From Gammaproteobacteria bacterium (lineage in GTDB: Bacteria > Pseudomonadota > Gammaproteobacteria > GCA-001735895), in contig JASJBV010000001.1 in assembly GCA_030066335.1 (NCBI GenBank), forward strand, positions 9,065 to 73,064: a stretch of 64,000 bases of DNA, read 5' to 3'. The notes beneath the pieces are model-generated. The model saw only the letters and a program-made list of their open reading frames with translations. It ran no database searches and was not told the origin of the DNA. Both the position numbers and the translations under genes were made by a program. Shown in pieces: positions 10,297 to 44,830 of the stretch (its first letter is position 1; each line of letters starts with the position of its first letter).

Positions 10297-13200
10297 ATGT
10301 TTTCCAGTCTACGCGCACATCTGATCTTTCTGGTATTACTGGCGGCGGTGATACCTGTGCTCATCGCCGGCATCTTGGTTACCCAGCGTAGTAATACCTA
10401 CCTCGAACAGCAAAGCATACGAGCTCTCGAGGAACAATCCGCGGGCCTTGCCGATAGAATCAAGGGATTCTTTGACCTTCGATTAAATGAGCTCGAGTTA
10501 CTGGACAAGACATTTGGCTTCAATACGCTAAGCCGGCAGGATCAAACCAACGTCCTCACCAGCCTGCTGCAACAACAGCATTATCATGGTTTCAGCATCG
10601 TTGAACCCGATGGGACAGAGATGCTTAAACTGGCCCGAGACCAGGCCTACCCGGAAAACCATATCATCAACTGGTCAACTGACTCGCTGTTCCAGCAAAC
10701 TGTCAGCAGCCGGGAAACCCAGTTCGGCTTAATCCAGTTTGATCGAGAAATTCGCGAACCCTTGATGACGATCATCATGCCCCTGTTCAATTATCAGAAT
10801 GGTCAACTCGATACCCTGCTGGTAGGCAGCATCCGCCTGAAAAAATTGTGGGAGATCTTATCGCAGATCAACAAGTCCAGGGATACGACCAGTTTTGTCA
10901 CCGACCAGACTGGAAGGATAGTGGCCCATGAAAACCCGGTAGTTGCGATAAGAGGTCAATATTACGATCGCCAGATAACGGATAGTAATTCCGGTATCGA
11001 GATTGGCCCGGAAATAATTGCCGTGACCAGGTCTGTTTACCTCGGCGATAAACAGTTTGTTATCGTCACCGAAAAACCTGCGTCAAGCGTATACGCCCTG
11101 AGTCGGGATAACATCAAAGCCACCCTGATCACTTCGTTGATCCTGATGTTTTTTATTGTGGCGATCACGGTTTTGCAGTGGCGCAATATCCAACGACCCA
11201 TAGCGCGCCTGTTAAATGCAATCAGGGAAATTGAACAGGGGAATTTCAACAGGCCGCTGGGCGAGGCAGGATTGACTGAGCTGGACCAATTGACAGATTC
11301 GTTCAATCAAATGAGCCATAGTCTGGACGCCACGATGGAAGCGTTGAGAGAAAAAGAAAGGATCGCCAGAGAAGCCAATCTTTCCAACGAGGCTAAAAGC
11401 ATTTTTCTTTCCAACATGAGCCATGAGATCCGTACACCGATGAACGGTGTGATCGGCATCACCGAACTGCTGCTCGATAGCAAACTAGACCAGGATCAGT
11501 ACGGCAAGGTCAGGTTGATCAAGCAAAATGCCGAATCCCTGCTGAACCTAATCAACGATATCCTCGACCTGTCAAAGATCGAGGCAGGCGAACTAAATTT
11601 CGAAATCTATGAATTCGATTTAAATCGGTTGCTGGCGGAAATAGTGTCAGTCATCGCTTTCAGTGCACAAGCCAAGGGCCTTGAATTAATCTGCCCGGCC
11701 GCCTGGCTGGACCAACACTGGTATCACGGTGATCCGGGGCGCATCCGCCAGGTATTGATCAACCTGTTAAGTAATGCGATCAAATTCACCGAATCGGGTG
11801 AGGTCGTCCTCAACATCGAGATCGAGGCGGTCTCTGACCAACAGGACGCCCTGCACTTCAGTGTCACCGACAGCGGCATCGGTATCGAACCGCAACAGCT
11901 TGCTCATTTATTCGACCGCTTTTATCAGGCCGATGACTCGCCGGCTCGTATCTATGGCGGTTCAGGTCTTGGCCTGGCCATCAGCCAGCAATTGGTAAAC
12001 CTGATGGGAGGCGAAATCAACGTGCAGAGCCAGCCCGGGATGGGTTCAAGCTTTTCCTTCACGATTCAACTGGAAACCGCTGCCGCAGCGGAAAACCTGG
12101 TGTTGCATACCTCCGAACTGGAGCAGCTGAGAACACTGGCAGTCTCTGCCAATCCACGAGTGCTCGCCTTGCTGGACGATATATTCGGCCACTGGTCGCT
12201 ACACCATCAGCAGGCAGATAGCGCCGAGGCGGCTGGTAGTTTGCTGCAACAGGGCAAAGATTCTGACCAGGCATTCGATATCATCCTGATCGATGATGGC
12301 TTGCCCGGCAATGATACGCTCGAACTGTGTGAAGGCATTCAACAGGATCATGAACTCAAGCAGATGCATCTCATTTTGATGCATGCCCTGTCGCAACCAG
12401 TTGATCGGGACAGGCTATCGGCCGCCGGATTCACCGCCCTGCTGGATAAACCTATCGATCAGAACAAGCTGTTGCAAACCCTGTTGCGGGTAGTCAGGGG
12501 TGAAACCAGTCTCGAAACCGCCAGCCAAACCGATAGTGCGGAGAGCTATCAACGCTTCAACGCAAGCATCCTGGTCGTCGAAGATAACCTGACCAACCAG
12601 CAGGTTATACTGGGTATGCTCAACCGACTCGGCATAGAGGCAGACCTCGCCCAGGATGGCGCAGAAGCATTGGATAAGTTGAAAACGAATACTTACGACC
12701 TGGTGTTTATGGATTGCCAGTTACCGGTCATAGATGGATATGAGGTGACCCGCCAGATTCGCTCGGTGGATTCGACGGAGATAAATGCTAACGTACCCAT
12801 TGTTGCGATGACGGCCAATGTGATGCGAAGTGATATAGAGCACAGTCTGAAAGTCGGCATGAATAGCCACCTTGGTAAACCCATTGAATCGAGAAAGCTC
12901 AAGCAGATACTACTCAGTTGGCTGCCTGAACACTGCATTCCTGACCGGGACCAGGCAGCAGACGATGATGCCAATTTTGATCAACAGGATCAAAAGCGAC
13001 AGGCGCAGACATTTGATTATGCAAAATTGAGTCAGCATATGCTGAACGATGAACATTTGATGAAGACAGTCGTCTCGACATTCGTCGACGACATACCCGT
13101 ACAAATGCAAAAATTACGCGAGCTGGTCGAATCAGACCAGCGCAACGACATTCGAAAGCAGGCACATAAAATCAAAGGTGCCTGCAGTAATGTCTGTGCA

Positions 13201-13347
13201 ACGAGTATGCAGCAGCTCGCTGTTGAATTGGAAGTAAATGCGCTGCAAATTGAGGATGACCAATTAGGCCAGCACTTCGAATCTCTCGCGACCGCCTGTA
13301 GCGAACTGGTTGCAGAATTAAAAACTATCGTATTAGAAAGGGTGTAG
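10297..13347 (+). CDS. hybrid sensor histidine kinase (periplasmic sensor-HAMP-HisKA-HATPase-degenerate REC-REC-Hpt)
   Basis: [27 protein letters not shown], receiver [13 protein letters not shown]...[11 protein letters not shown], Hpt [12 protein letters not shown]. Confidence 0.9.
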
Positions 13348-29602: not shown

Positions 29603-32600
29603 TTACGGGCGCTGCAGCTCGGCTTTCGCTTGCGCTGGGTGGCGTGACTCAAGCCACTGCAACACGGCGACGGTTAAGGCGGGGAGAAAGGTCAGGGTCA
29701 CCAGCGCGGTGCCGATGATACCGGCCATGACGATGACGCCGACACCGCGATACAGCTCGGTACCCTCGCCCGGGATGAACACCAGCGGCGCGAGACCGAA
29801 CACCGTGGTCAGGGTCGACATCGCGATCGGGCGCAGGCGGGTATCGATCGCGTTGCGTACCGCCTCGACCGCCGACATCCCCTGTTCACGCAGGTTCAGC
29901 ATTGCCTGGTGGACGATCAGGATCGGGTTGTTGACGACGGTACCCATCAGGATCAGAAAACCGAGCATCGTAATCATATCGAAGGACTGGTGAATGGCCT
30001 GCAGTCCAACCGCGGGCAATAACAGGCTGCCGACCAGGTTCAACAAGGCCAGGCCGATAATGCCCGACGCGATACCGAGCGGGATCGTGGTCATGATCAA
30101 TACCGGGTAGCCCCAGTGGGAAAAAATCGCGACCAGCAACAGGTAGATGATCACCAGCGCGACCAGGTAGTTGGCGCCTAACGATTCCTTGGTCGACTGC
30201 AGCTGGTCACTGGCGCCGGAGGTGACGATCTTGACCGCCGCCGGCAACTGGCCATTGTCCTGCATGTAACCGATCACATCCTGCTTGACGATCTCCACCG
30301 CGGTCTCCAGCGCGACCGCGTCGGGCGGGATAATGTTCAGGGTCACGGTGCGGCTGCCATCGACCCGGCGAATATTGCTGGTATCGACGGTTTCGACCAC
30401 GCTGGCCAGTGACGACAACGGCACCACGGTGCCGCCCGGGGTATACACCGGCAGCTTGTCGAGTCGATCCAGGCTGGCCTTGCGGTCAGTGTTGCTGTAG
30501 AGGTAGATATCGATCTTGTCATCGGCAAAGAAAAATTCGTCGACGAAGGCACCATCGGTCAGGGCGGCGATGGTGAACCCCATCTCATCATGAGTCATGC
30601 CGGTCTCGGCCAGGCGTTCCCAGTCCGGCCGCACCTCGACCAGCGGTTGCGACAGGTTCAGTGACGACGGATTCGAGCGTACCCGCGGCCGCTGCATGAC
30701 CTCCTTGGCCCGGTTTTCGGCATCCAGCGCCACCTGGTAGATGGTCTGCAGGTCGGGGCCGGAGATATCCAGGTTGACGCTGCGGGTACCGCCACTGTTG
30801 CTGGAGATAATCGAGCCGCGGGATACGAACGAGCGCATGCCGACATAATCGCCGAACTTGGCGCGTACCGCATCCATCAGCGGTTTGATATGGCTGGGAT
30901 CCTTCGGCTGCGAGATGATAAAGATCGTGGTGGCACGGATGCTCATGTTCATATACAGCATCGCCGGTACCTCGGTTTCACCGCGCGCAAACTGTTCCGG
31001 ATCATGCTCGAGATAGGGCAGAAAATGCTCCTGCAGGTCCATGCCGATGCGGGTCATGGTTTCCAGGTTGTAGCCGGTGGGTGAACTCATGCGCGCAAAC
31101 AGTTTCGGCTCCTCGCCCTCGGGCAGGTATTCGGCCGCGGGCGTCAGCCAGATGATGATCGCGGTGCAGATACCCCCGACCAGGGCGATGACACTGAAGC
31201 GGCGTAGCGAGGTCGCCACCAGCCAGTTGATCACAGCAACCGTGGCCCGGCGCATGCGGCCGGTTTCACGGGCGACGGCGCTGGCCGGTTGGGCAAACAC
31301 GAAGCGCCCAGCTGCCGCCGGCACCGCGGCAATCGCAATCGCCATCGACGCCAGGATCGAGGCCGAGATCGCAATCGCGACATCGCTGTAGAGCTGGCCC
31401 GCCTCTTCCGCGATGAACACGATCGGTACGAACACCATGACCGTGGTCAGGGTCGACGCGAGCACCGCCGGCCATACCCTGCGTACACCCTCGACCGCGG
31501 CACGCCAGCGATCAAGGCCCTTGCGCCAGGCTTGCTCGATACTCTCCAGCACGACGATGCTGTTATCCAGGGTCATGCCGATGGCAAAAGCCACGCCGGC
31601 GAGGGAAATCACGTTGATCGTCCGCCCGCTGGCATACAGACCGATGAAGGCCGCGATCGTACACACCGGAATCCCCATGATCCCGACCAGGGTGGCGCGG
31701 CCGGAACGCAGGAACAGGTACATGACCAGGCTGGCCAGCAGCGCGCCGATCAGCAGGTTGGTCCAGACGTTGAAAATCGACGCCTGCACATAGCCGACGT
31801 CATCGGCGACCAGGCGCAGCGCCATCCCCGCCGGCTGCAGAATTTCCGCGTTGACCGCGTCAACCTCCAGCATCATCTGGCGTTTGATATCGATGACATT
31901 GGAGCCCGGGTTGCGCCTTACCGACATGCCGATCGCCGGTTGGCCATTGGCGAAGGAATGGCGCACGATCTCGAAATGGCCGATACGGATATCCGCCAGT
32001 TCACCCAGCCGCACCAGTGCATCACCATCGCGCGTGATGATCAGGTCATTGAGTTCGTCGACATCGCTGAAGCGACCGATCGTGCGCAACAGGTAACGGC
32101 GCTTGCCGGATTCGATCTCGCCGCCGGAAACATCGATGTTGCGCTCACGAATCGCCTGGCGCACGCTGGCCACGGTCAGGTTACGCTCGGCCAGGCGGCG
32201 CGGGTCGAGCACAATCTGCACCTGGCGGTCGGCACCGCCATAAACCGAAACCTCGGACACCCCGGGAATCGCCTCCAGCCTGGATGCCACGTTGTCGCGG
32301 ATATAGTCCTGCATCGGGGTGATATCGATATTGCGCGGATTGCCCGGCAGCGGCATTATCCGGAAGTACATGAAGGCGTTGGCCGAAAACGAACTGGCGA
32401 TGATGCGCGGCTGATCGACGTTATTGGGATAGGAACTGACCCGGCTGAGCGCGTTCATGACCTCGATCAGGGTCTTGTTGAGATCGATACCGAACGGAAA
32501 TTCGAGTTCGATCCGGGCGCGGCCGAATTCGGCGGATGACTCGATGCGTTGCAGCCCACGCACGCTGCGCAGCTGTTCCTCCTGCTCGATCAGGATCTCC

Positions 32601-32776
32601 TTCTCGACATCCTGTGGGGTGGCGCCAGGCCAGGCGGTACGGACCCCAATCGTGCGTACCTCCAGGTCCGGGATCATCTGCACCGGAATATTGAACGCCG
32701 CGACCAGGCCCAGCACGACGATGATCAGCGTTGCCACGCCGACCAGGATGCCGTGTTTGACCAGGTTATCGAACAT
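29603..32776 (-). CDS. RND efflux transporter permease (AcrB/HAE1-like, 12 TM)
   Basis: 1057 aa; characteristic TM/periplasmic loop architecture. Confidence 0.9.
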   Translation of the reverse strand: MFDNLVKHGILVGVATLIIVVLGLVAAFNIPVQMIPDLEVRTIGVRTAWPGATPQDVEKEILIEQEEQLRSVRGLQRIESSAEFGRARIELEFPFGIDLNKTLIEVMNALSRVSSYPNNVDQPRIIASSFSANAFMYFRIMPLPGNPRNIDITPMQDYIRDNVASRLEAIPGVSEVSVYGGADRQVQIVLDPRRLAERNLTVASVRQAIRERNIDVSGGEIESGKRRYLLRTIGRFSDVDELNDLIITRDGDALVRLGELADIRIGHFEIVRHSFANGQPAIGMSVRRNPGSNVIDIKRQMMLEVDAVNAEILQPAGMALRLVADDVGYVQASIFNVWTNLLIGALLASLVMYLFLRSGRATLVGIMGIPVCTIAAFIGLYASGRTINVISLAGVAFAIGMTLDNSIVVLESIEQAWRKGLDRWRAAVEGVRRVWPAVLASTLTTVMVFVPIVFIAEEAGQLYSDVAIAISASILASMAIAIAAVPAAAGRFVFAQPASAVARETGRMRRATVAVINWLVATSLRRFSVIALVGGICTAIIIWLTPAAEYLPEGEEPKLFARMSSPTGYNLETMTRIGMDLQEHFLPYLEHDPEQFARGETEVPAMLYMNMSIRATTIFIISQPKDPSHIKPLMDAVRAKFGDYVGMRSFVSRGSIISSNSGGTRSVNLDISGPDLQTIYQVALDAENRAKEVMQRPRVRSNPSSLNLSQPLVEVRPDWERLAETGMTHDEMGFTIAALTDGAFVDEFFFADDKIDIYLYSNTDRKASLDRLDKLPVYTPGGTVVPLSSLASVVETVDTSNIRRVDGSRTVTLNIIPPDAVALETAVEIVKQDVIGYMQDNGQLPAAVKIVTSGASDQLQSTKESLGANYLVALVIIYLLLVAIFSHWGYPVLIMTTIPLGIASGIIGLALLNLVGSLLLPAVGLQAIHQSFDMITMLGFLILMGTVVNNPILIVHQAMLNLREQGMSAVEAVRNAIDTRLRPIAMSTLTTVFGLAPLVFIPGEGTELYRGVGVIVMAGIIGTALVTLTFLPALTVAVLQWLESRHPAQAKAELQRP

Positions 32777-32791
32777 TCACCGCTCTCGCTG

Positions 32792-33898
32792 TTAGTCGTT
32801 GGTTGGTCTGACGCTCACCTTCTGGCCTTCGCGCAGTGACTCGTTGCCTCTGACAACGACCAGCTCACCCGCGGCCAGGCCGGACGTGATATTGATGCGA
32901 CCGTTGAAACTCAAACCGGTCTGCACCTGTTTCTCGGTCACCTCGGCCTGCTCATCGTTTTGCTCGACCGCCCACACCGTAATGCGGCCATCGGGATAGC
33001 GGATCAACGCATTGCGGTCGACCACGACGCCGTCATCACTGCTGCTGATATGCAGGGTGGCACTGGCCGAGATACCGGGGATCAGGCTGACCCCGGTATC
33101 GTCGAGGAGGGTCCGCAGCGGAAAGGTCCGCGAGCCACGGTCGGTGACCGGCACCACGCTGATGATGTTGGCGCTGAAGGTTTCGCCAGGCAGGGTACCG
33201 AAGCTGACCTCGATCCGGCTGATCGCGCCGAGCCGCTGGTAGACGCGCTGCGGCACCTGGAATTCAATCTCTGGCGCGGTCATTGATACCAGCTCCACCA
33301 CCGCATGACCGGGAGCCACCCATTCCCCGCGTTCCGCGTTGCGCGCACTGATGACACCGGCGAAGGGCGCGCGCAGGGTGTGCTGACGCAGGCGTAACTG
33401 TTGTTGCTGCTCCTCGGCCTGCAGGCGGGTCACCTCGGCCGCATCGATCGACACCTCGGCTTTCAGCGAGTTGATTTCATTGGCCGATACCGTGTTGGTT
33501 CGACCGAGCCGTTCGGCATCGGCCAGCCGGCGCCGGGCGTCCGCCAGTTCACGCCGGACCTGTTCGGCTTCGGCCCGTTTGGCCTGTAGCGACAACTGCT
33601 CCAGGTCGGATTTAAGGGTCAGGATCACATCGCCCTCGCTGATCCGGTCACCAATGTCGACGTCGATGTTATCGATCAGGCCGCTGATCTCGGTCGACAG
33701 GCGGGCCTGGCGCGAGGAGATGACGGTGCCGGTCAACGGCACTTCCTCGACCACCTCGGCCTGCTGCACCCGTTCGGTGATAACCGCAGTAGCCTTGTCC
33801 TGGGCGAACAGGGGATTTGCGATTAACAGCATCAACAAGGCCTGGCCCGGCGATAGCCGGTTTGTCAAACGGGGATAATCGGGTTGCCTGGTTGTCAT
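32792..33898 (-). CDS. efflux periplasmic adaptor (membrane fusion protein, HlyD family)
   Basis: Coiled-coil rich (AEQVRRELADARRRLADAERL) plus beta-barrel region. Confidence 0.85.
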   Translation of the reverse strand: MTTRQPDYPRLTNRLSPGQALLMLLIANPLFAQDKATAVITERVQQAEVVEEVPLTGTVISSRQARLSTEISGLIDNIDVDIGDRISEGDVILTLKSDLEQLSLQAKRAEAEQVRRELADARRRLADAERLGRTNTVSANEINSLKAEVSIDAAEVTRLQAEEQQQQLRLRQHTLRAPFAGVISARNAERGEWVAPGHAVVELVSMTAPEIEFQVPQRVYQRLGAISRIEVSFGTLPGETFSANIISVVPVTDRGSRTFPLRTLLDDTGVSLIPGISASATLHISSSDDGVVVDRNALIRYPDGRITVWAVEQNDEQAEVTEKQVQTGLSFNGRINITSGLAAGELVVVRGNESLREGQKVSVRPTND

Positions 33899-33954: not shown

Positions 33955-36471
33955 CTAGCCCGCGTTGCGTAACAGGATCGCCGGGCGCACGCGCAAACGC
34001 CTGAGCAGGTAATGGGTGCCCAGGCCGAGCGAGGCAATGCTGACCACGACCGCGGTCAGGGCACCCACCCAGACCAGGTCAGTGGACGGCAGCTTCATGC
34101 GTATTTCCAGCAGCGGCAACGCAATCGCCGAACCCAGCAGCACTGCGAATATTGCGGTGACCAGGGCCAGCAGCAGGTACTCGAGCTGCAGGCTTTGCCG
34201 AATCACCGACAGCCTCGCGCCCAGGGTATTCAACACGGTGGCCGCATAGACCTGGCGCGAACGACCGGCCGCGATCACGCTGATCAGCACCAGCAGACTG
34301 GCCGCCAGGCTGATCGCGGCGACGACCACCAGGCCCAGGGTGGCCTGGCCAAGCAGGTCTCCGGCAGTGGCGAGAATACGCGCGGTGCGCACCGTGATCA
34401 CGTTGGGTGCCACCGCTGCAATCTGGCGCTGCGCGTCGATGGCCTGGGCATCGTCCAGCCAGGCGGCACCGACGTGGCGGTTAATGAATGGATCGAGCAG
34501 CCCATCGCTGACGATGACCTCGAACCAGAACCGGGTTTGCACGCCCTTCTGTTTATGGATGGTTGCGACCTGCATATCGATCGTTTGTCCGCCGACCCGA
34601 TAACTGATGCGATCACCGGCCGTGATGCCCAGCCGGCGTGCCTCCCGGTCTTCCAGCGACATTTTCGGTAAGGTCTCACTCTGCTCCCACCAGCTACCCT
34701 CGACCAGGCTGATTCCATCGATATTGCCGGCGCGGTAACTCAACTTGTGGTCGTCATTCAGCGCATCGCGCAGTTCATGATCGCCAGCGGCCAGCAATTC
34801 ACTGACCGGCCGGCCGTTGATCGCGTCGATCCGGGCGCGCACCAGCGGCGCGGTTTCTACCCGTGCGCCTTCCGCGGCGCTCTGCACTGCGTCGATCACA
34901 TCGCTGACCTGGTTGACGTTGATATCGTACAGCACCATGCCCGGCGACTCGGCCGGGATCGTGGCTTGCAGGGTGCGCATCAGCGACACCACGACCAGGG
35001 TACAGGCGACCAGCAGGGTCAACGCCGAACCCAGCGACAGTAGGGCGCTGCGCAACGGGGTACCCGGCCGGTGCAGGTTGGCCAGGGCCAGGCGCAGGGC
35101 GAAGCGGCCCTCGAGGCGCTGGTTGTGCTGCAGCGCGATGGCGCCACGCCGGATCAGGCGCAGGATGATCTCCAGCAGGACCAGGACCAGGCCGACCACC
35201 AGGATAAAACCGACGCCAAACAGTGGGTCCGGCAGCGTCAACAACACCAGCAGGACAATCAATCCACCGTTGATCGCGGTCGCCAGGCGCCAGGCCGGCG
35301 GGGTATGCCCGGCATCCTGGTCGGCATCGCGAAACAGGGTAGCCGGCGATACTGCCAGCGCCCGGCCGACGGCCGGCAGGGCAAAACAGAAGGCGGTCAG
35401 CAGGCCGAAGGCGAAGGCCGCGACTAATGGCGCCAGCACCGCACCCAGGGTGGTCGCCAGCGCCAGCTCCGCGGCCACCATGGTCGCACCGACGAGTGCG
35501 AGCAAGGCACCGATCAGACAGCCGACCAGGCTGGAACCACCGCCGAGGATACCGACCTGTAATAGGTAAACACTGGCCAGGCGTCGATTGCGAAGACCGA
35601 GCGAACGCAGGGTGGCGATAGTCTTGAGTTTGCCCTGCAGGTAGGACTGGATACTGCTGAAAACGCCGAGACCGCCGATGAACAGGGTGCTGAAACCGAT
35701 GATCAACAGGCCGGACGCAATCTGGCCGAGGCGCTCGGCGATCCGCTGGCTGCGGTCCTCGAAGGTGCGCACCTCCCAGGTTTCATCGGGGAAGCGCTCA
35801 TAGAACATGTCTTTCCAGCGCGCCGCGGGGATATCGGTAGCGACGCGGTAATCATAATCGACCCTCGATCCGGGATGGATCAGATCGGCCTCGCGAATGG
35901 CCTGCATCGAGATCAACACCGGCGGACCGCGCCAGTCCGCGGTCAGGGCGCGGTCCGGCTGATCCATGATCAGGGCCCGCACCTGCATGATCAGGGCTCC
36001 GATGTATATTTCCTGACCCACATCAAGCCCGTAACGCAGGGCCAATGACTGGTCGATCGCGACGCCCCAGTGCTCGCCGTCAAATGCAGTGAGGTCAGAC
36101 AGTTTTGCCGCCGGTTGCAGTTGCAACTCGCCATACAGTGGATAGAGCTCATCCACGCTCTGCAGTTCGACCCGGACAAAATCGCCCTCGGCGGTGCCCA
36201 GCATGGTATAGAGTTCGGTCATCAGCGACACCGTGCCATGCTCACCCATCCAGGCGAGGGCTTCTGCGGGCAACGGCTGTTTCGAATCGACGTCGAGGTC
36301 GCCGCCCATCAACTGGCGGGTATCCGCCAGCAGACCGGTGCTGACCAGGCGATAGAGACCACCGCTGGCAGCGACCAGGGTGACCCCGAGCACGATACAG
36401 GCACAGAACACCCATAGCGAGCGACCGCTCGCGCGCAGGTCGTGCCAGGCCAGCTTAAGCAGAAAGCGCAT
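33955..36471 (-). CDS. FtsX-domain ABC transporter permease (YbbP-like, two FtsX repeats)
   Basis: ~838 aa; start taken at [15 protein letters not shown]. Confidence 0.8.
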   Translation of the reverse strand: MRFLLKLAWHDLRASGRSLWVFCACIVLGVTLVAASGGLYRLVSTGLLADTRQLMGGDLDVDSKQPLPAEALAWMGEHGTVSLMTELYTMLGTAEGDFVRVELQSVDELYPLYGELQLQPAAKLSDLTAFDGEHWGVAIDQSLALRYGLDVGQEIYIGALIMQVRALIMDQPDRALTADWRGPPVLISMQAIREADLIHPGSRVDYDYRVATDIPAARWKDMFYERFPDETWEVRTFEDRSQRIAERLGQIASGLLIIGFSTLFIGGLGVFSSIQSYLQGKLKTIATLRSLGLRNRRLASVYLLQVGILGGGSSLVGCLIGALLALVGATMVAAELALATTLGAVLAPLVAAFAFGLLTAFCFALPAVGRALAVSPATLFRDADQDAGHTPPAWRLATAINGGLIVLLVLLTLPDPLFGVGFILVVGLVLVLLEIILRLIRRGAIALQHNQRLEGRFALRLALANLHRPGTPLRSALLSLGSALTLLVACTLVVVSLMRTLQATIPAESPGMVLYDINVNQVSDVIDAVQSAAEGARVETAPLVRARIDAINGRPVSELLAAGDHELRDALNDDHKLSYRAGNIDGISLVEGSWWEQSETLPKMSLEDREARRLGITAGDRISYRVGGQTIDMQVATIHKQKGVQTRFWFEVIVSDGLLDPFINRHVGAAWLDDAQAIDAQRQIAAVAPNVITVRTARILATAGDLLGQATLGLVVVAAISLAASLLVLISVIAAGRSRQVYAATVLNTLGARLSVIRQSLQLEYLLLALVTAIFAVLLGSAIALPLLEIRMKLPSTDLVWVGALTAVVVSIASLGLGTHYLLRRLRVRPAILLRNAG

Positions 36472-37186
36472 GGTCGCGGTCTTCAATAAGTTTGCCGTCG
36501 CGCAGGCGTAGCACGCGCCGGCAGCGGGCGGCGATCGCCTCGTCATGGGTGACCATGATCATCGACGAACCGGTCTCCTGATTCAGGCCGAACAACAGCT
36601 CGATGACCCGGGCGCCGGTATTGGCATCCAGATTGCCGGTGGGCTCATCAGCCAGCAACAGTCGCGGCCGGTGCACCAGGGCGCGGGCAATCGCAACCCG
36701 CTGCTGTTCGCCACCGGACAACTGCGATGGATAATGGCTGGTGCGTTCGCCCAGGCCGACCCGCTCGAGCATGGTCAGGGCGGTCTCGCGTGGGTTGTCG
36801 CGACCGGCGATCTCGAGTGGCAGCATGACGTTGCCGAGCGCGGTCAGGCTGGGCACCAGGTGAAACGACTGGAATACGATACCGAGTCGATCACGCCGCA
36901 GGTCGGCCAGGGCCTCGGCGTCGAGATGATCGAGGTCGGCATCCTCGAACAGAATTCTGCCGCCATTGGCCTGTTCCAGCCCAGCGAGCAGTAACAACAA
37001 GGTGGTCTTGCCGGAGCCCGAAGGCCCCAGGATGGCGACGGTCTCACCCGCTTCCAGACTCAGATCAACGCCGCGCAAGACGTCGAGCTGACCCTCGGCG
37101 AGCGCATAGGACAGGCTCAACTGTTGAATATCGATCAGCGGGGCGGACGTTATTGATTCTGCAGCAAGTTCGGCACTTGGATTCAT
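36455..37186 (-). CDS. ABC transporter ATP-binding protein (YbbA/LolD-like)
   Basis: [35 protein letters not shown]. Confidence 0.85.
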
Positions 37187-38434: not shown

Positions 38435-39193
38435 ATGCACTATTCAATAGCCTGGTTGGTAGTTCTGAGCCTGTTCTTCGCACCCACAATTCATGCCTCA
38501 TCCATTATCGTCACCGGCGATATCACCGCCAACCGGGAAGTCGTGCTGTCCACCCGCATCATGGGGCGGATCACCAGGGTCCACGCCGAGGAAGGCGACC
38601 GGGTCAAGCTTGGCCAGGTAATCATCGAACTGGATGATAAGGAATACCAGGCCCGCTTGCGCATCGCCCAGGCTGCCAGGGAACGCGCCGAGGCCGAATT
38701 GGCCCAACGTCAGCGTACCCGCAACCGGCTGCAGGAATTGACCAAAACCGATGCCGTGTCGCAGGATGCGGTGGATGAAGCTGTGTACGGACTGGAAGTG
38801 GCCGAGGCCAATGTGAAGTCGGCCGAGGCCGAGATCGAATCGATCCTGTCTACCCTTGCCGAGACCCGGATCACGGTGCCGTTTGACGCGGTGGTGATCG
38901 GGAAAATGGCAGAAGAGGGTCTGGTCACTCAACCGGGCCAGGCCCTGTACGAAATCCAGGACCAGAGCCGGTTGAAGTTCCGGGCAAGGGTCAAGGAGCG
39001 CGACCTGGCGCGGATCAAGCTCGATGCAAAGGCCACGCTAACGATCTCCGCGTTGCGCCCTGAACCGCTGGAAACCCGGGTCATCAAGGTAATCCCCAGT
39101 GGTGATTCACGCCATACCTTCCTGGTGGAAATGTCGGTGCCGCAACTACCCGGCCTGTATCCGGGTATGTTCGGCAAAGCCGTGTTCGAGTAG
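38435..39193 (+). CDS. short RND efflux periplasmic adaptor (253 aa, apparently lacking the membrane-proximal domain)
   Basis: AGGAGG RBS; signal peptide, lipoyl-like and coiled-coil segments, beta-barrel; ends GMFGKAVFE immediately before the inverted-repeat element. Confidence 0.75.
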   Translation: MHYSIAWLVVLSLFFAPTIHASSIIVTGDITANREVVLSTRIMGRITRVHAEEGDRVKLGQVIIELDDKEYQARLRIAQAARERAEAELAQRQRTRNRLQELTKTDAVSQDAVDEAVYGLEVAEANVKSAEAEIESILSTLAETRITVPFDAVVIGKMAEEGLVTQPGQALYEIQDQSRLKFRARVKERDLARIKLDAKATLTISALRPEPLETRVIKVIPSGDSRHTFLVEMSVPQLPGLYPGMFGKAVFE

Positions 39194-39197
39194 CCCA

Positions 39198-39466
39198 GTG
39201 GTCCAAGCGGAGAATAAGGTGACACTCAGCCACAGCACAATCGATGTTGGCAAGGCGCAGTCCGCAGGGAATGGTCCAGCCCTTTTCAAGGACTGCAACG
39301 CAGTCCAACATGGATTGTGCTGTGGCCCTTCGGGAGCGGCTGTGCAGGCGCGACTCTGCGTTGTGTTTCTTGCTAAGGGCTGGGCCATTGGCTGCAAAAC
39401 ACGTCTTGATTCGCACCCGCACAGCCACTCTGAGCGTTACCTTATTTTCCGTTTGGACCACTAGGA
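39198..39466. mobile_element. MITE-like non-coding element with imperfect ~33-bp terminal inverted repeats
   Basis: AGTGGTCCAAGCGGAGAATAAGGTGACACTCAG vs reverse complement AGTGGTCCAAACGGAAAATAAGGTAACGCTCAG, 29/33 identical; internal nested inverted repeat CCACAGCACAATCGATGTTGG / CCAACATGGATTGTGCTGTGG. Confidence 0.5.
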
Positions 39467-39485
39467 CCGGGACGGGAGAATCGAC

Positions 39486-42400
39486 ATGCAGGCATTTCTC
39501 CGTTACTTCGCCAGTCGGCATACCCTGGCCAACGTATTCACCATGATGGTGGTGCTGCTCGGCCTGGGTACCCTGACCCACATCCAGCGCGACAATTTCC
39601 CCAGCGTCGATCTGGCCGAGATGGTCATCACCACGCGCTACCCCGGCGCTTCGCCGCAGGACGTGGAACTCAATGTCACCAACCTGATCGAGGAACAACT
39701 GAAAGAAGTCGACGGCCTGAAACGCGTGACCTCGTTCTCGATGGAAAATATCTCGGTGATCAACGTCAGGATGGACCTGGATGCCAAGGACCTGGACAAG
39801 GTTAAAACCGATGTACGGGATGCCGTATCCCGGACCTCCGGCTTCCCACAGGAAGTCGATGAACAGCCGGTGGTGCGCGAAATCACCACCGCCACCGGGA
39901 TCCCGATCATCGAGGTTGGATTGACCGGTGCGGACATACCCTACTCGGAACTGCGCGAGTATGCGCGCAATGCCGAGAAAGAACTGGAAGAAATCCAGGG
40001 GGTGGCCAGGTTGCGGCGCTATGGCTACCTCGACCGCGAGATCCATATCGAGATGCTGCAGGACTCACTGGAACAGTGGCAGATACCCGGCGCCCAACTG
40101 GTCAGCGCGATCGCCAACCGCAACATCCGCGCCAGTGGCGGTTCCTTCGAGTCCTATACCAGTGAAAGAAACATCGTGACTCTGGCCCAATTTGAAGACC
40201 CGCTGGAAGTCGAGGATGTCATCGTCGAGGTCACCGATGACGGGACCCAGATCCGGGTCAGTGATATCGCCATCGTCAAGGATGCGTTCGAACCGGAAAA
40301 ACAGCGCTCGCGGATGAATGGCAAGCCGGCGATATCCTTCGTCGTCTACAAGAAAGAATCCGCGGATATCATACGCACGGTAGACCGGATCAAGGCCCTG
40401 GTCGAAGAGAACCAGCACCGCTTGCCGGCAGGCGTCAGCATCGAGTATTCCAACGATGTGTCGGCGAATGTCAAAAACCGGCTGCAGGTGGTCGCTTCCA
40501 ACGGTATCCTCGGCCTGATCCTGGTGCTGGTGACCCTGTCCTTTTTCCTCGATCTGCGCTCCGCGTTCTGGGTGGCGCTGGGCATCCCGGTTGCGTTGCT
40601 GGGCACGATCTTTCTGCTGCCGGTGTTCGGGGCTTACCTCGATACCATAGCCCTGGGCGCGATGATCCTGGTCATCGGTATCGTCGTCGATGATGGCATC
40701 GTGGTCGCGGAGAACATCTGGCGTTACCGGGAACAGGGCTTGTCCGCCCTGGATGCGGCGGTCAAGGGTGCTGCCGAGGTCTATCGGCCGGTGATAACAA
40801 CCCTGTTGACCACGGCCCTGGCCTTTGCGCCGATGTTCTTCATGACCGGCACCCTCGGTGACTTTATCTTCGTCATCCCGCTGGTGGTGACCCTGGCCTT
40901 GCTGGTGTCGCTGGCGGAACTATCCTTCTCACTGCCGGCGCACCTGATCTGGGGGGTCAAGGACCAGGTCATCAACGTCAAGCAAGAACCCAGGCGGCTC
41001 AACATCGAGGGCATCAAGGAAAAGTTTGGACGCCTGCTGGGGGTATTCTTAAGATGGCGTTACCCGGTGATTGCCCTGTCGGTCGTTCTGCTCGTCTCGT
41101 CGTTCTGGTACGCGGCCCGCTACATTGACTTCGTCCTGTTTCCGACCCAGTCGGCCAACCGCTTTGACATGCTGGTCGAACTGCCCACCGGTTCCTCGCT
41201 GGACCTCACCTCCAACACCATGCGTAAACTGGAACGCCTGGTCGAGGAGTTACCCGAGGGCGAGGTTGAATCCTACGTGACCCGCATCGGCGGCCTGGGT
41301 GATTTTTTTGCCGGCGAGAATGAGCACTGGGCCTACCTTGGCGTGTTCCTGACCCCATTTGCCACCCGCGAGCGCAATGCCGATGAGATCGTCGAGGAAA
41401 TGCGCCAACGCAGCCGGGCCATTGAGGAGATCGAGCGTATCAACTTCGTCGTCGACAGCGGCGGTCCGCCGGTCGGGCGCCCGGTCACCGTGCGCGTGGT
41501 CGGCAGCGATGATGATAAACGCGTGCAGCTGGCGGACCTGGTCACCGAGCGCTTGCAGAACATGGAGGGCATCAAGGACCTGGACCGCGATGACAAGAAA
41601 GGCAAGGAGCAGATCAACGTGGATATCGATTTTATCCGCCTGGCAGATGCCGGTCTGTCGGTGGCGGACGTGGCGCGCAATGTCCGCCTCGCCTTCGACG
41701 GCGAGGTCGTGACCTCGGTGCGCTATGGCGATGAAGACGTGGATTTCCGCGTATTGTTCGAGGAAACCGCGCGCAGTTCGCTGGATACCCTCTCCGACCT
41801 GGTGGTCCCGAACCGGCGCGGTGAATTCGTGCGGCTGGAGGAAGTCGCCAATTTCAGCATCGGCAGCGGCCCTTCCAATGTCTACCACTTCGATAACGAA
41901 CGCGCGATCACGATCACCAGCGATGTAGTCAAGGGGGTCTTGACTCCACTCGAAGCGACAGACCGGGTCCAGCAGGGAATCGACCTTGACCGGGACTGGC
42001 CGGGCATGCGCATCGTGGTCGGTGGCGAGGCCGAGGAATCCGCCGAATCCATGGGCAGCCTGGTGGTCGCATTCGTGGCCGCGGCGGTGGGCATATACCT
42101 GCTGCTGTTGCTGCTGTTCGATTCAATGACCCAGCCGATCCTGGTTATGATCGCGATCCCCTTCGGCATGGTCGGTGTCATCCTGTCGTTTGCCCTGCAT
42201 CAAACCGACTTTGGTTTTCTCGCCATGCTTGGCGTGGTCGGCCTGACCGGTATCCTGGTCAATGACTCGTTGATCCTGGTCAACCTGGTCAATAACCTGA
42301 AAGCCGAACATCCGGAGGTTCCACTGCATGAGCGCATCATCATGGCGGCCAAGGTACGCATGCGCCCGATCGTGTTGACCTCGATTACCACCGTTGCCGG

Positions 42401-42578
42401 CCTGCTGCCGATGGCCTATGGCATCGGTGGCTCAGACCCCTTTTCTGCACCGATGGCGCTGGCGATGGGTTATGGCATCCTGTTCGCCACCCCGATCACC
42501 CTGATCCTGGTACCCTGCCTGTTGGCGGTCATGCACGATTTACATCAGATCCCGCTCAGGCTTAAGCGTGGGCAATAG
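39486..42578 (+). CDS. RND efflux transporter permease
   Basis: 1030 aa AcrB-like. Confidence 0.9.
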   Translation: MQAFLRYFASRHTLANVFTMMVVLLGLGTLTHIQRDNFPSVDLAEMVITTRYPGASPQDVELNVTNLIEEQLKEVDGLKRVTSFSMENISVINVRMDLDAKDLDKVKTDVRDAVSRTSGFPQEVDEQPVVREITTATGIPIIEVGLTGADIPYSELREYARNAEKELEEIQGVARLRRYGYLDREIHIEMLQDSLEQWQIPGAQLVSAIANRNIRASGGSFESYTSERNIVTLAQFEDPLEVEDVIVEVTDDGTQIRVSDIAIVKDAFEPEKQRSRMNGKPAISFVVYKKESADIIRTVDRIKALVEENQHRLPAGVSIEYSNDVSANVKNRLQVVASNGILGLILVLVTLSFFLDLRSAFWVALGIPVALLGTIFLLPVFGAYLDTIALGAMILVIGIVVDDGIVVAENIWRYREQGLSALDAAVKGAAEVYRPVITTLLTTALAFAPMFFMTGTLGDFIFVIPLVVTLALLVSLAELSFSLPAHLIWGVKDQVINVKQEPRRLNIEGIKEKFGRLLGVFLRWRYPVIALSVVLLVSSFWYAARYIDFVLFPTQSANRFDMLVELPTGSSLDLTSNTMRKLERLVEELPEGEVESYVTRIGGLGDFFAGENEHWAYLGVFLTPFATRERNADEIVEEMRQRSRAIEEIERINFVVDSGGPPVGRPVTVRVVGSDDDKRVQLADLVTERLQNMEGIKDLDRDDKKGKEQINVDIDFIRLADAGLSVADVARNVRLAFDGEVVTSVRYGDEDVDFRVLFEETARSSLDTLSDLVVPNRRGEFVRLEEVANFSIGSGPSNVYHFDNERAITITSDVVKGVLTPLEATDRVQQGIDLDRDWPGMRIVVGGEAEESAESMGSLVVAFVAAAVGIYLLLLLLFDSMTQPILVMIAIPFGMVGVILSFALHQTDFGFLAMLGVVGLTGILVNDSLILVNLVNNLKAEHPEVPLHERIIMAAKVRMRPIVLTSITTVAGLLPMAYGIGGSDPFSAPMALAMGYGILFATPITLILVPCLLAVMHDLHQIPLRLKRGQ

Positions 42579-42787: not shown

Positions 42788-44830
42788 ATGAATAACCAGA
42801 CTCTGTCAGAGAGTCAGCGGATCATAAGGGATAGCACTCCGGTTCACTCTGTCACCCCTCTCATCGTCACCCTCATCTTGCTGTTCATGGCCAGTATAAT
42901 CGGGGCCATCGTGTTCGGTATTTACGCGATCGATAAACAGGCGCAACACAATCTCAAGCAGAATATCCTTATCGCGTTAGATATCGAGAAGCAAAGGCAG
43001 AGGGACATCCTGGAAGAGTACTCCTACTGGGATGAAAGTTATGCAAACACCATCGCCAATCCCGATCAGTCGTTTATCGATAACAATACGGGAGAGTATA
43101 TCCTGGACAGATATGGCTACGCATTCACCGCCTCGGTCACGGGTGATCGATCATCGGCCGTGATTACCGCCGATGCTGAACATGCGTCACTGACCTTGGA
43201 TCAATTACTTGACCATGGTTTGGGCGGGCTGGCTGACGCAGCGATTAGCGACAAAGAGATGAACTATACCCTGAGCGATTACCTGACCATCGATGACCGG
43301 ATTTACCTGGTGACGCTCGGTCTGTATGTGGATGAGGATTCTGAGGTGGTCAGGCCGGATCATGCCCTGCTGGTGTTTGCCCGCAAGCTGGATAGTGACT
43401 ACTTCAGCCAACTGGGAGCCTTACACCAGATCCCGGGGTTGCAGATTCATCCCGACATTGACACCTGTGATCCAGATACCCTGTTGCTCAACAACCGGAT
43501 GAAGCAGCCGGTCATGGCCCTGAGCTGGCAGCCGGCGAGCCCAGGCGGAAGCTACCTGCCTTATCTGTTGGGCTTCGTGGCCCTGTTATCTACCATTCTG
43601 GCGATCCTGGTCATGAACATCCTGCGCAAGCAACAGAAAAATCAGCGCAGCTATGACAGCACGCTGGAAGCGGCGCTGCTGGAAGCCCAGTCCGCCAGTG
43701 AGACGAAATCGAATTTCCTCGCCACCATGAGCCACGAAATCCGTACCCCGATGAATGGGGTCATCGGTATGGCCCATGTATTGAGGGAAACCCCGCTGAC
43801 AGATGAGCAGAGTCAATGTCTGCAGGTCATCAATGATTCGGGAGAATCACTGTTGAATATCATCAATGACATCCTCGATTTCTCCAAGATCGAAGCCGGT
43901 CAAATCGAACTGGAGGAAATCGATTTCGACCTGGAGCAAATTGCCCAGAGCGTGCTTGATCTGATCTCCACCCAGGCCCGGCAAAAAGGCATCGAATACC
44001 GGTTGGACATTGCCCCGGCCTGCCAGGGCATTTATCGCAGTGACCCGGGGCGCATCCGCCAGATATTGCTCAACCTGTTGAACAACGCGGTGAAATTTAC
44101 CCAGCAGGGTAGGATCACACTTAGCATCACGACTGGTGATGCCGATTCGAATCCAAGAAATATCCATTTTGCCGTGGTTGATACCGGCATGGGCATCGCC
44201 GCTGAAGACAGCGGGCGTTTATTCCAGAGCTTTTCCCAGGTGGACAAGGGTATCGCCCGTAAGTATGGCGGGACCGGACTGGGACTGGCGATATCCAAAT
44301 CCCTGGTGGACCTGCTGGGCGGCAGCATCGGGGTGGAGAGCAAATTAGGCGAGGGCAGTACCTTCTGGTTCGAGCTGCCATTAACCTTTATCTCCAGTTA
44401 CCAGCCCCAGCAACCATCGGCCACGGAAGAAATGACGCTGTATCATCCCCCGATGAAAATTCTGCTGGTAGAGGATGTAGTCGCCAATCAACTGATCGCG
44501 AGAAAAATGCTCGATAAGTTAGGGCATGGCGTCGATACGGTAGCGAATGGTTTCGAGGCGATCGAGGCGCTTAATTTGAGACATTACGACCTGGTTTTCA
44601 TGGATATCAGGATGCCGGAATTGAATGGACTCGAGACCACCCGGATCATACGCAAATCGGATGACGAGTCCATCTCTCGCATCCCGATCTTCGCGATGAC
44701 CGCAAATGCCACCCAGCAAGACCGCCAGGAATGCCTGGATGCCGGGATGAATGATTACATATCCAAACCGCTGTCGATGGACCGGCTGAAAAAAATATTA
44801 AACCAATTCTTTAGCCGGCAGCTTCAGTAA
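42788..44830 (+). CDS. hybrid sensor histidine kinase (periplasmic sensor-HisKA-HATPase-REC)
   Basis: [27 protein letters not shown], receiver ILLVEDVVANQLI...FMDIRMPELNG. Confidence 0.9.
   Translation: MNNQTLSESQRIIRDSTPVHSVTPLIVTLILLFMASIIGAIVFGIYAIDKQAQHNLKQNILIALDIEKQRQRDILEEYSYWDESYANTIANPDQSFIDNNTGEYILDRYGYAFTASVTGDRSSAVITADAEHASLTLDQLLDHGLGGLADAAISDKEMNYTLSDYLTIDDRIYLVTLGLYVDEDSEVVRPDHALLVFARKLDSDYFSQLGALHQIPGLQIHPDIDTCDPDTLLLNNRMKQPVMALSWQPASPGGSYLPYLLGFVALLSTILAILVMNILRKQQKNQRSYDSTLEAALLEAQSASETKSNFLATMSHEIRTPMNGVIGMAHVLRETPLTDEQSQCLQVINDSGESLLNIINDILDFSKIEAGQIELEEIDFDLEQIAQSVLDLISTQARQKGIEYRLDIAPACQGIYRSDPGRIRQILLNLLNNAVKFTQQGRITLSITTGDADSNPRNIHFAVVDTGMGIAAEDSGRLFQSFSQVDKGIARKYGGTGLGLAISKSLVDLLGGSIGVESKLGEGSTFWFELPLTFISSYQPQQPSATEEMTLYHPPMKILLVEDVVANQLIARKMLDKLGHGVDTVANGFEAIEALNLRHYDLVFMDIRMPELNGLETTRIIRKSDDESISRIPIFAMTANATQQDRQECLDAGMNDYISKPLSMDRLKKILNQFFSRQLQ

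Follow-up and report, generated by a model that had tools for sequence, protein, structure and literature searches.

A candidate CTAG-targeting miniature transposable element in the spacer between the adaptor and pump genes of a gammaproteobacterial RND efflux operon

The segment that separates an RND periplasmic adaptor gene from its pump gene in an uncultured gammaproteobacterium is best explained as a copy of a non-autonomous DNA transposon (MITE) that belongs to an uncatalogued family, targets CTAG and encodes no protein, a reading to which we assign a probability of about 0.85. The segment was analyzed within a 64-kb stretch of DNA, referred to here as the window, in which 292 nt lie between the adaptor stop codon TAG (39191–39193) and the pump ATG (39486). 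The first-pass annotation had called it MITE-like, and this was borne out by its absence from five orthologous operons and its presence at unrelated loci. A transposase acting in trans would have inserted the element at a CTAG-like site in a 26-nt adaptor–pump spacer, after its lineage had diverged from relatives with an 89% identical adaptor. The features of the locus are as follows, with the basis for each in brackets.

38435–39193, + strand: RND periplasmic adaptor gene, 252 aa, intact (Pfam HlyD_D23 and HlyD_3; homologue lengths; C-terminus of orthologues at empty sites)
39195–39464, no strand: whole element including the flanking tetranucleotides (missing at the orthologous loci L003, L004, L005, L016 and L017; nhmmer profile match)
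39194–39229, no strand: left terminal inverted repeat, the 5′ arm of the outer stem (repeat finder; compensatory changes in helix 1)
39195–39198, no strand: left flanking tetranucleotide CCAG (CTAG at this place in L009, L012 and L014; CTGG in L018)
39229–39326, no strand: internal hairpin 1 (22-bp stem 39229–39250/39305–39326 plus a distal sub-hairpin)
39327–39333, no strand: junction mini-hairpin CCTTCGG (six-copy alignment; predicted folds)
39334–39430, no strand: internal hairpin 2 (23-bp stem 39334–39356/39408–39430 plus a distal sub-hairpin)
39430–39465, no strand: right terminal inverted repeat (repeat finder; similarity of the inner 25 nt to the inner portion of the Tn21-type 38-bp repeat)
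39461–39464, no strand: right flanking tetranucleotide CTAG (sequence; copy alignment)
39474–39478, + strand: pump ribosome-binding site GGGAG (sequence; conserved in orthologues at empty sites; unpaired in the predicted fold)
39486–42578, + strand: RND inner-membrane pump gene, 1030 aa, intact (Pfam ACR_tran)

Insertion into the spacer, dispersed copies and CTAG flanks

The element proper (39195–39464) measures 270 bp including its flanking tetranucleotides and 262 bp between them (39199–39460). An earlier description of a segment of about 270 bp with imperfect 33-bp terminal repeats proved accurate, the two 33-mers matching at 29 of 33 positions. A repeat finder returned outer arms of 36 nt (39194–39229 and 39430–39465) that are 86% complementary, and terminal inverted repeats of 35–36 nt were present in all full copies of the element. 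Used as a pattern, the terminal repeat had two sites in the window, which are the two ends of the element (0/100 shuffles).

Five orthologous adaptor–pump loci lacked the element (adaptor identity 84% in L003, 83% in L004, 80% in L005, 88% in L016 and 89% in L017). Their stop-to-ATG spacers are 21–26 nt long and carry the same GGAG-type ribosome-binding site. The spacer of L017 reads TAG-CTTGAGGCCGGGCCGGGAGAGTCGAC-ATG and that of L016 reads TAG-CTTAAAGCCAGGACGGGAGAATCGAT-ATG, and the spacers of L003, L004 and L005 resemble these two. In the window, the corresponding region reads TAG-CC-[CCAG TGGTCC...GGACCA CTAG]-GACCGGGACGGGAGAATCGAC-ATG. Removal of the bracketed 270 bp leaves 23 nt, or 27 nt if one CTAG is retained, compared to 26 nt in the closest relatives. 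The spacer lengths with and without the element thus indicate that the insertion coincides with the inverted repeats and that at most 4 bases were duplicated. As judged from this comparison of orthologous spacers, the segment is an insertion. In another assembly of the same organism, where adaptor and pump are 100% identical to those of the window, two contigs end inside the element, one on each side. Such breaks are typical of a repeat, and the element family thereby breaks metagenome assemblies.

Copies of the element were sought by two routes. An exact-pattern scan of the JGI metagenomes yielded one full copy (L009); the other matches of that scan were one solo repeat-like match of 24–26 nt (L007) and three chance matches. 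In addition, both element translations, the frame being open on both strands, were queried against a protein collection and the DNA of the matches was fetched, a route that detects only copies with an open frame. Counting L009, there were four further full copies (L009, L012, L014/L015 and L018/L019), 76–94% identical to the element and located at unrelated loci in other metagenomes. The L009 copy (93.7% identical) follows an unrelated gene, the stop codon of which lies within the flanking CTAG. The L012 copy is 87.8% identical, and that of L014/L015 (88.4%) lies on a 54-kb contig between GDPD-family and CvfB-family genes, in the opposite orientation. The most distant copy, L018/L019 (76%), is located between a flagellar-type ATPase gene and fliJ, also in the opposite orientation, and L018 carries a 36-nt insertion at the tip of hairpin 1. 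An internally deleted copy, L013, has lost hairpin 1. A fragment of an IS91-family transposase gene about 145 bp from the L009 copy was judged to be a separate element in the neighbourhood, because this family has neither such inverted repeats nor CTAG flanks.

The translation queries matched 24 sequences grouped in 12 protein clusters, and almost all of these came from contigs shorter than 2 kb. In one cluster, the element translations are nearly identical but the N-terminal flanks in front of them are of at least four kinds, a pattern that points to recent spread. A profile of the translations searched against 1.84 billion representative proteins matched 57 clusters (50% identity) at E ≤ 0.001, 15 of them at E ≤ 1e-10. 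Several diverged clusters are exactly 88 codons long despite less than 50% identity, and when the first and last 12 codons of diverged members were compared, 31–36 of 36 positions were compatible with reverse complementarity (23–24 ± 2.3 in shuffles). The contexts of the element comprise at least six distinct ones at the DNA level and at least four further flanks in the translated open reading frames. These matches indicate that the element family is large and old.

An nhmmer profile built from the copies matched 39196–39464 at E 9e-97, and neither this profile nor the terminal-repeat pattern found a further copy in the 64-kb window. The element had no BLAST match in 72,556 plasmids, and BLAST searches of plasmids and phages with the element or its terminal repeat gave nothing or chance matches of 18 nt. 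When 185,579 species-representative genomes were scanned for the exact pattern, no true copy emerged; the single match lies inside a long open reading frame of an acidobacterial (Pyrinomonadaceae) MAG and was dismissed as chance. Two scans of viral contigs gave no copy, and a literature search for the terminal sequences returned unrelated primers only. Neither the window and the fetched loci nor the plasmids and phages yielded an autonomous partner whose ends match those of the element.

We then compared the flanks of the copies. CTAG is present on both sides of the element in L009, L012 and L014, and one end is off by one base in the window (left CCAG), in L018 (CTGG) and in L013 (CAAG). The CCAG and CTGG variants represent the same T-to-C transition on opposite strands. 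Very-short-patch repair is expected to produce this T-to-C change at CTAG, and the depletion of CTAG in proteobacteria has also been attributed to it. We read the left CCAG of the window as a probable decayed CTAG, either the target or its duplication. The tetranucleotide occurs 30 times in the window versus 245 times expected from base composition, making it the rarest palindromic tetranucleotide there, and 16 of the 30 sites are intergenic or in stop codons, with only about 12% of the window being non-coding. The distance of the element from the upstream stop codon is 1 nt in the window, 9 nt in L018 and 22 nt in L014, and in L009 the position falls within that codon. Being rare and concentrated at gene ends and TAG stop codons, CTAG would direct copies to sites just after stop codons and inside operons, in agreement with these positions. 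The family may serve as a clean example of an element that seeks CTAG and is guided to gene ends because this target is so rare. Outside CTAG, no direct repeat was observed. The 5-mers next to the element are different in each of the five full copies, and only CTAG or TA is common to them. Because CTAG is palindromic, a target duplication is inseparable from the terminal repeat, and the flanks are compatible with three readings, namely a TA duplication within CTAG, a 4-bp CTAG duplication, or CTAG as the repeat's own end.

The predicted Y-shaped fold and its conservation

The suggestion that the element would give a highly base-paired RNA if transcribed was upheld by folding, with −158 to −164 kcal/mol and z about −11, equal on both strands. 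The predicted RNA fold has a free energy of −163.5 kcal/mol on the + strand and −161.2 kcal/mol on the − strand, compared to about −100 to −105 ± 5.4 kcal/mol for the shuffled element (z −11.0 and −11.4; 0/200 as good). With DNA parameters the fold reached −79.6 kcal/mol (z −9.6). Its shape is a Y, in which a long outer stem (a 33-bp duplex) leads to two long arms of roughly 45 bp each, with the mini-hairpin CCTTCGG at the junction. Nested inverted repeats had also been noted inside the segment, and the repeat finder returned two pairs: a 22-nt pair at 39229–39250/39305–39326 (95% complementary) and a 23-nt pair at 39334–39356/39408–39430 (83%). The cores of the two inner hairpins are joined by a further, 53-nt inverted-repeat pair, the hairpin-2 core being the reverse complement of the hairpin-1 core at 72%. 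The junction block GGCCCTTCGGGAG is unchanged in all six aligned copies.

In the six-copy alignment, 93.9% of cells are in standard pairs. Both partners have changed at 11 pairs, compared to 4.9 ± 1.4 in shuffles (0/500) and 0–2 when the partners were slid by 1–3 columns. The outer stem and each of the two arms contain such double changes. Many of them are common to subfamilies and hence arose in the lineages that gave new copies. The alignment thus shows that base pairing is maintained by compensatory changes. Every copy folds equally well on both strands (−155 to −186 kcal/mol) and the G-U pairs show no strand bias, indicating a symmetric constraint rather than one specific to a transcribed strand. 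We also observed that the compensatory changes in the internal hairpins exceed the needs of a cut-and-paste transposase that recognises only terminal repeats, which is at odds with a plain MITE.

An alternative in which selection maintains the Y fold beyond the terminal repeats draws on these results. In its specific form, the element moves or functions as a folded single strand, either of the HUH/RAYT type (REPIN, IS200/IS605-derived palindromes) or as a required structured RNA. Compensatory double changes common to subfamilies occur in all three main helices, internal hairpins included, the junction block is invariant, the 88-codon length is kept in very diverged relatives, and the fold (−158 to −186 kcal/mol) is much more stable than that of known Tn3-derived miniature elements with a comparable length (−67 to −103 kcal/mol). 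However, in REP and REPIN sequences a short hairpin bears a conserved GTAG head, and IS200/IS605-derived elements have asymmetric subterminal hairpins, lack terminal inverted repeats and insert 3′ of a fixed tetra- or pentanucleotide. By contrast, the present element has symmetric, near-perfect inverted repeats of 35 nt that extend to its very ends and CTAG on both sides, which are hallmarks of DDE transposon ends and not of IS200/IS605 or REP sequences, and it has no GTAG head. Both strands fold equally, without G-U asymmetry, and hairpin 1 can be deleted (L013) or bear a 36-nt insertion (L018). Moreover, arm-to-arm correction within the palindrome could give paired changes without selection. 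We therefore regard both a folded single-strand mode of action and selection for the Y fold as distinctly improbable. A wider version is unlikely too, if slightly less so. Here propagation would require the whole Y fold, for example as an intermediate of folded single-stranded DNA or RNA or as the substrate of an unrecognised mobilising enzyme, or hosts would keep the fold within operons as a portable module for RNA processing or insulation. Besides the pairing kept in all helices, the invariant junction and the constant length, this version builds on the mixed features of the ends: no transposon class described so far combines a Tn21-like inner domain with ends unlike those of Tn3 and with CTAG flanks, which allows such a reading.

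The efflux operon, its short adaptor and the open frames

The first-pass annotation had offered a cis-regulatory RNA controlling the pump as an alternative. A native regulatory RNA that arose for control of the pump, such as an attenuator, a riboswitch or a processing site, would suit a highly structured segment in a presumably transcribed operon spacer, but the segment is missing from all five orthologous operons examined, whose spacers are 21–26 nt long, and its copies lie beside unrelated genes in both orientations. The element had no Rfam match, either at gathering thresholds over the window or at E ≤ 10 over the element itself. A promoter and terminator scan revealed no outward promoter-like site, hence none facing the pump, and no T-run after the outer stem; the matches to terminator patterns were weak and all inside the element. 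This reading was accordingly abandoned as very improbable.

The two coding sequences remain intact after the insertion, as does the ribosome-binding site of the pump. The left flanking tetranucleotide starts 1 nt past the adaptor stop codon, and the ribosome-binding site and ATG of the pump are both outside the element, the former at a distance of 10 nt from the base of the outer stem. The pump matches ACR_tran over profile positions 2–1020 of 1021 (E 1e-173). The element is presumably co-transcribed with the operon and would then give a very stable Y-shaped RNA, placing a structure of roughly 160 kcal/mol between two genes of an efflux system. We infer that the most likely effect would be cleavage of the 33-bp outer duplex by RNase III, which would uncouple the stability of the adaptor and pump mRNAs. 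There is a precedent in Neisseria: within mtrCDE, also an RND efflux operon, a Correia element is cleaved by RNase III at its paired terminal repeats, with an effect on expression (PMC10969869). Uncoupling of this kind has been reported for Correia elements in that operon. The insertion may influence pump expression, and it could equally be neutral.

The first-pass annotation had described the adaptor as a protein of 253 aa that ends right at the element and lacks the usual membrane-proximal domain. The adjacency was correct and the length was not, the gene encoding 252 aa (38435–39193 including the stop codon). The missing domain was confirmed: the adaptor aligned to residues 42–268 of the 371 residues of MacA, and the C-terminal approximately 100 residues of solved adaptors such as MacA have no counterpart. 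The further suggestion that the element had landed in a longer adaptor gene and cut off this domain did not survive. It would account for an adaptor about 100 residues shorter than solved ones and for an element that begins one base past the stop codon. However, a search of 5.8 billion proteins gave 205 homologues, and all of the 120 listed are 237–286 aa long, most of them 252–257 aa; most of the listed homologues cover 90–100% of the query, and none of the 120 has a C-terminal adaptor domain family on record. The orthologous adaptors at the empty sites end in ...GMFGKAVFE followed by the stop codon, exactly as the adaptor of the window does. In addition, no adaptor-like coding remnant is present downstream, where one comes at once to the ribosome-binding site and ATG of the pump. 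Since the homologues are equally short and the orthologues without the element stop at the same residues, these comparisons indicate that the shortness is a family trait and that the gene is intact, and truncation by the element is extremely improbable. For annotation, the locus can be considered settled as an intact operon with a genuinely short adaptor, typical of its family, and a 270-bp spacer that represents the putative mobile-element insertion. A conventional RND pair, consisting of a 368-aa adaptor and a 1057-aa pump, is encoded on the − strand of the same window (29606–33898).

The reading that the segment encodes a small protein, in a frame of 88 codons from GTG at 39198 to TAG at 39464 with an equivalent frame open on the other strand, can practically be discarded: most copies have the frame open on either strand, and gene callers annotated it as a gene in many assemblies, but substitutions show no codon-position bias (19, 22 and 16 variable sites; p = 0.55) and preserve base pairing instead, coding on both strands is impossible with codon boundaries that the two frames share, L009 has an in-frame stop, and the matching database frames have no Pfam domain on record. 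The open frames are by-products of composition and palindromy, and the corresponding database “proteins”, deposited as hypothetical proteins in the 57 clusters mentioned above, are spurious.

Comparison with known mobile elements

MITEs are shorter than 500 bp, have terminal inverted repeats, give stable stem-loop transcripts and occupy intergenic regions or 3′ UTRs (PMC10969869). Like the bacterial families Correia, ERIC of enterobacteria, Chunjie of Geobacter and QMITE of Coxiella, the present element is small, non-coding and multi-copy with terminal inverted repeats, is found at intergenic or 3′-UTR sites including operons, and has truncated or rearranged copies (PMC10969869). Unlike the MITE families examined, it shows no sequence similarity to them, has longer repeats (35 bp), is G+C-rich instead of A+T-rich, and is predicted to adopt a Y-shaped fold in which pairing is kept by compensatory changes. 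Its hosts also differ, being uncultured Gammaproteobacteria known from metagenomes alone, unlike those of Correia, ERIC, Chunjie and QMITE.

The terminal repeat resembles part of the Tn21-type repeat. The Tn21 38-bp repeat used as query was verified against plasmids, in which it was found in 4043 records, with at least 99% identity in 2594, beside Tn3-family transposase and mer genes. Local alignment of AAACGGAAAATAAGGTAACGCTCAG with the Tn21-type AAACGGAAAATAAAG-CACGCTAAG gave 21 identical positions out of 25 and ended at the inner boundary of both repeats; the score of 28 compares to 11.3 ± 2.1 in shuffles (0/2000 as high). Tn3-derived miniature elements (TIMEs) are 244–288 bp long, and the original ones are exactly 262 bp, a strongly conserved length (PMC4133298, PMC13367494). 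The present element shares with TIME1–3 the 262 bp, counted between the CTAG flanks, the conserved length, the lack of an ORF and a stable predicted RNA fold. In contrast to TIMEs, however, its ends are (CTA)GTGGTCC and not GGGG, its repeat is 35 nt and not 38 nt long, its fold is much more stable, and a 5–6-bp A+T-rich direct repeat outside the ends was found in none of the five copies. Whereas repeats of the Tn3-family type have TAAG at the inner and GGGG at the outer end, the outer end here is GTGGTCC or CTAGTGG, and the repeat is shorter by 5–7 nt. Local alignment of the core with TIME244, IMU and IS101 showed no similarity (z between −0.9 and 0.5). The TIME group was considered a poor fit on account of the ends, the target duplication and the core, and membership was rejected.

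The CTAG flanks recall two other groups. As summarized in PMC2577343, which cites Tenzen and Ohtsubo 1991, IS630 duplicates TA within its preferred target CTAG. As in MITEs derived from IS630/Tc1-mariner elements, the flanks here can be written C-TA-[element]-TA-G, the arrangement that IS630 yields at CTAG according to the same summary (PMC2577343). Neither an IS630-family transposase nor a matching terminal repeat was found. For the IS5-derived MITEPsy1, which was shown to transpose, insertion takes place at CTAG or YTAA and duplicates 4 nt (PMC3189936). As in MITEs of the IS5 group (MITEPsy1, MITEKpn1), the flanks of the present element fit a 4-bp CTAG duplication; those elements differ in being only 100–109 bp long with repeats of 16–18 bp that start with GGAAGG.

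In summary of these comparisons, the MITE family appears to be new, and its transposase class and the size of its target duplication, TA or CTAG, can only be inferred. Overall, this is a known kind of element with unusual traits, namely the conserved fold, the CTAG flanks and the Tn21-like inner repeat, and there is a small chance of something further. These mixed features might point to an undescribed partner transposase. Similarities of the terminal repeat to an IS5 repeat and to an IS3-family repeat were weaker than that to the Tn21-type repeat and are not decisive. When IS5-group repeats were aligned with the arms of the element, the IS5 repeat scored 20 (p 0.0045) with one arm and was not significant with another, and the MITEPsy1 repeat was not significant.

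Short adaptor–pump pairs and neighbouring genes

The adaptor encoded next to the element belongs to a family whose members measure only ~252–257 aa and have no membrane-proximal domain. At each of the six loci examined (the window and the orthologous, element-free loci L003, L004, L005, L016 and L017), an RND pump gene lies 3′ of the short adaptor gene, and the pump is ~1030 aa long in every locus where the gene is complete. The gap between the two genes is 21–26 nt in the orthologous loci, whereas it reaches 292 nt in the window. No outer-membrane factor gene was found adjoining the short adaptor–pump pair in the six loci examined. The genes considered in the window are as follows:

38435–39193: short RND adaptor gene
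39486–42578: RND pump gene paired with the short adaptor
29606–33898, minus strand: second, conventional RND pair (368-aa adaptor and 1057-aa pump)
33955–37186: MacB-like ABC/FtsX transporter, adjoining the conventional RND pair
2787–5666, 10297–13344 and 42788–44827: three hybrid sensor kinase genes

With two RND pairs and the MacB-like transporter, the window therefore contains three efflux systems inside 13 kb. The three kinase genes have stretches of 50–100 nt in common, on both strands and at 71–82% identity; the genes are paralogues, and these stretches are not mobile repeats.

Junction block, reading frames and CTAG sites

The block at the junction of the predicted Y-shaped fold is invariant in all copies of the element:

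39327–39333: junction block, GGCCCTTCGGGAG

Within it, one strand contains C(UUCG)G and the opposite strand CGAAG; these are mini-hairpin motifs of unusual stability, the former in RNA and the latter in DNA. The element also holds two open frames of 88 codons, running from GTG to the terminal TAG, which numerous assemblies list as genes. In public collections (P0121–P0200), "hypothetical proteins" forming at least 57 clusters at 50% identity appear to be translations of its repeat family. CTAG, the tetranucleotide flanking element copies, is strongly depleted in the whole window (30 sites, compared with 245 expected from base composition), and more than 50% of its sites fall in stop codons or are intergenic.

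Surroundings of other copies

At L009, a metagenome locus with a full copy, ~145 bp and a CTTG...GTTC hairpin separate the copy from a transposase fragment:

L009 1014–1427, minus strand: IS91-family (Y2_Tnp) transposase, C-terminal part

This fragment is probably a distinct mobile element in an insertion hotspot. At L012 (86–517 and 590–1042), another full-copy locus, a FimV-like protein contributes its first 54 residues to a fusion with the element's open frame; the remainder of L012 is non-bacterial in appearance. In the public protein P0132, half a copy is joined to an N-terminal segment that resembles a flagellar protein and has no Pfam match. Both fusions are either cases of the element inserted into a gene or assembly chimeras arising at the repeat. 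Finally, L007, a contig of high A+T content in a sister metagenome, carries a 24–26-nt stretch (57–84) identical to the element's terminal repeat, the remaining element being absent. This match may represent an isolated (solo) end of the element or belong to another element, perhaps an autonomous one, as its terminus.
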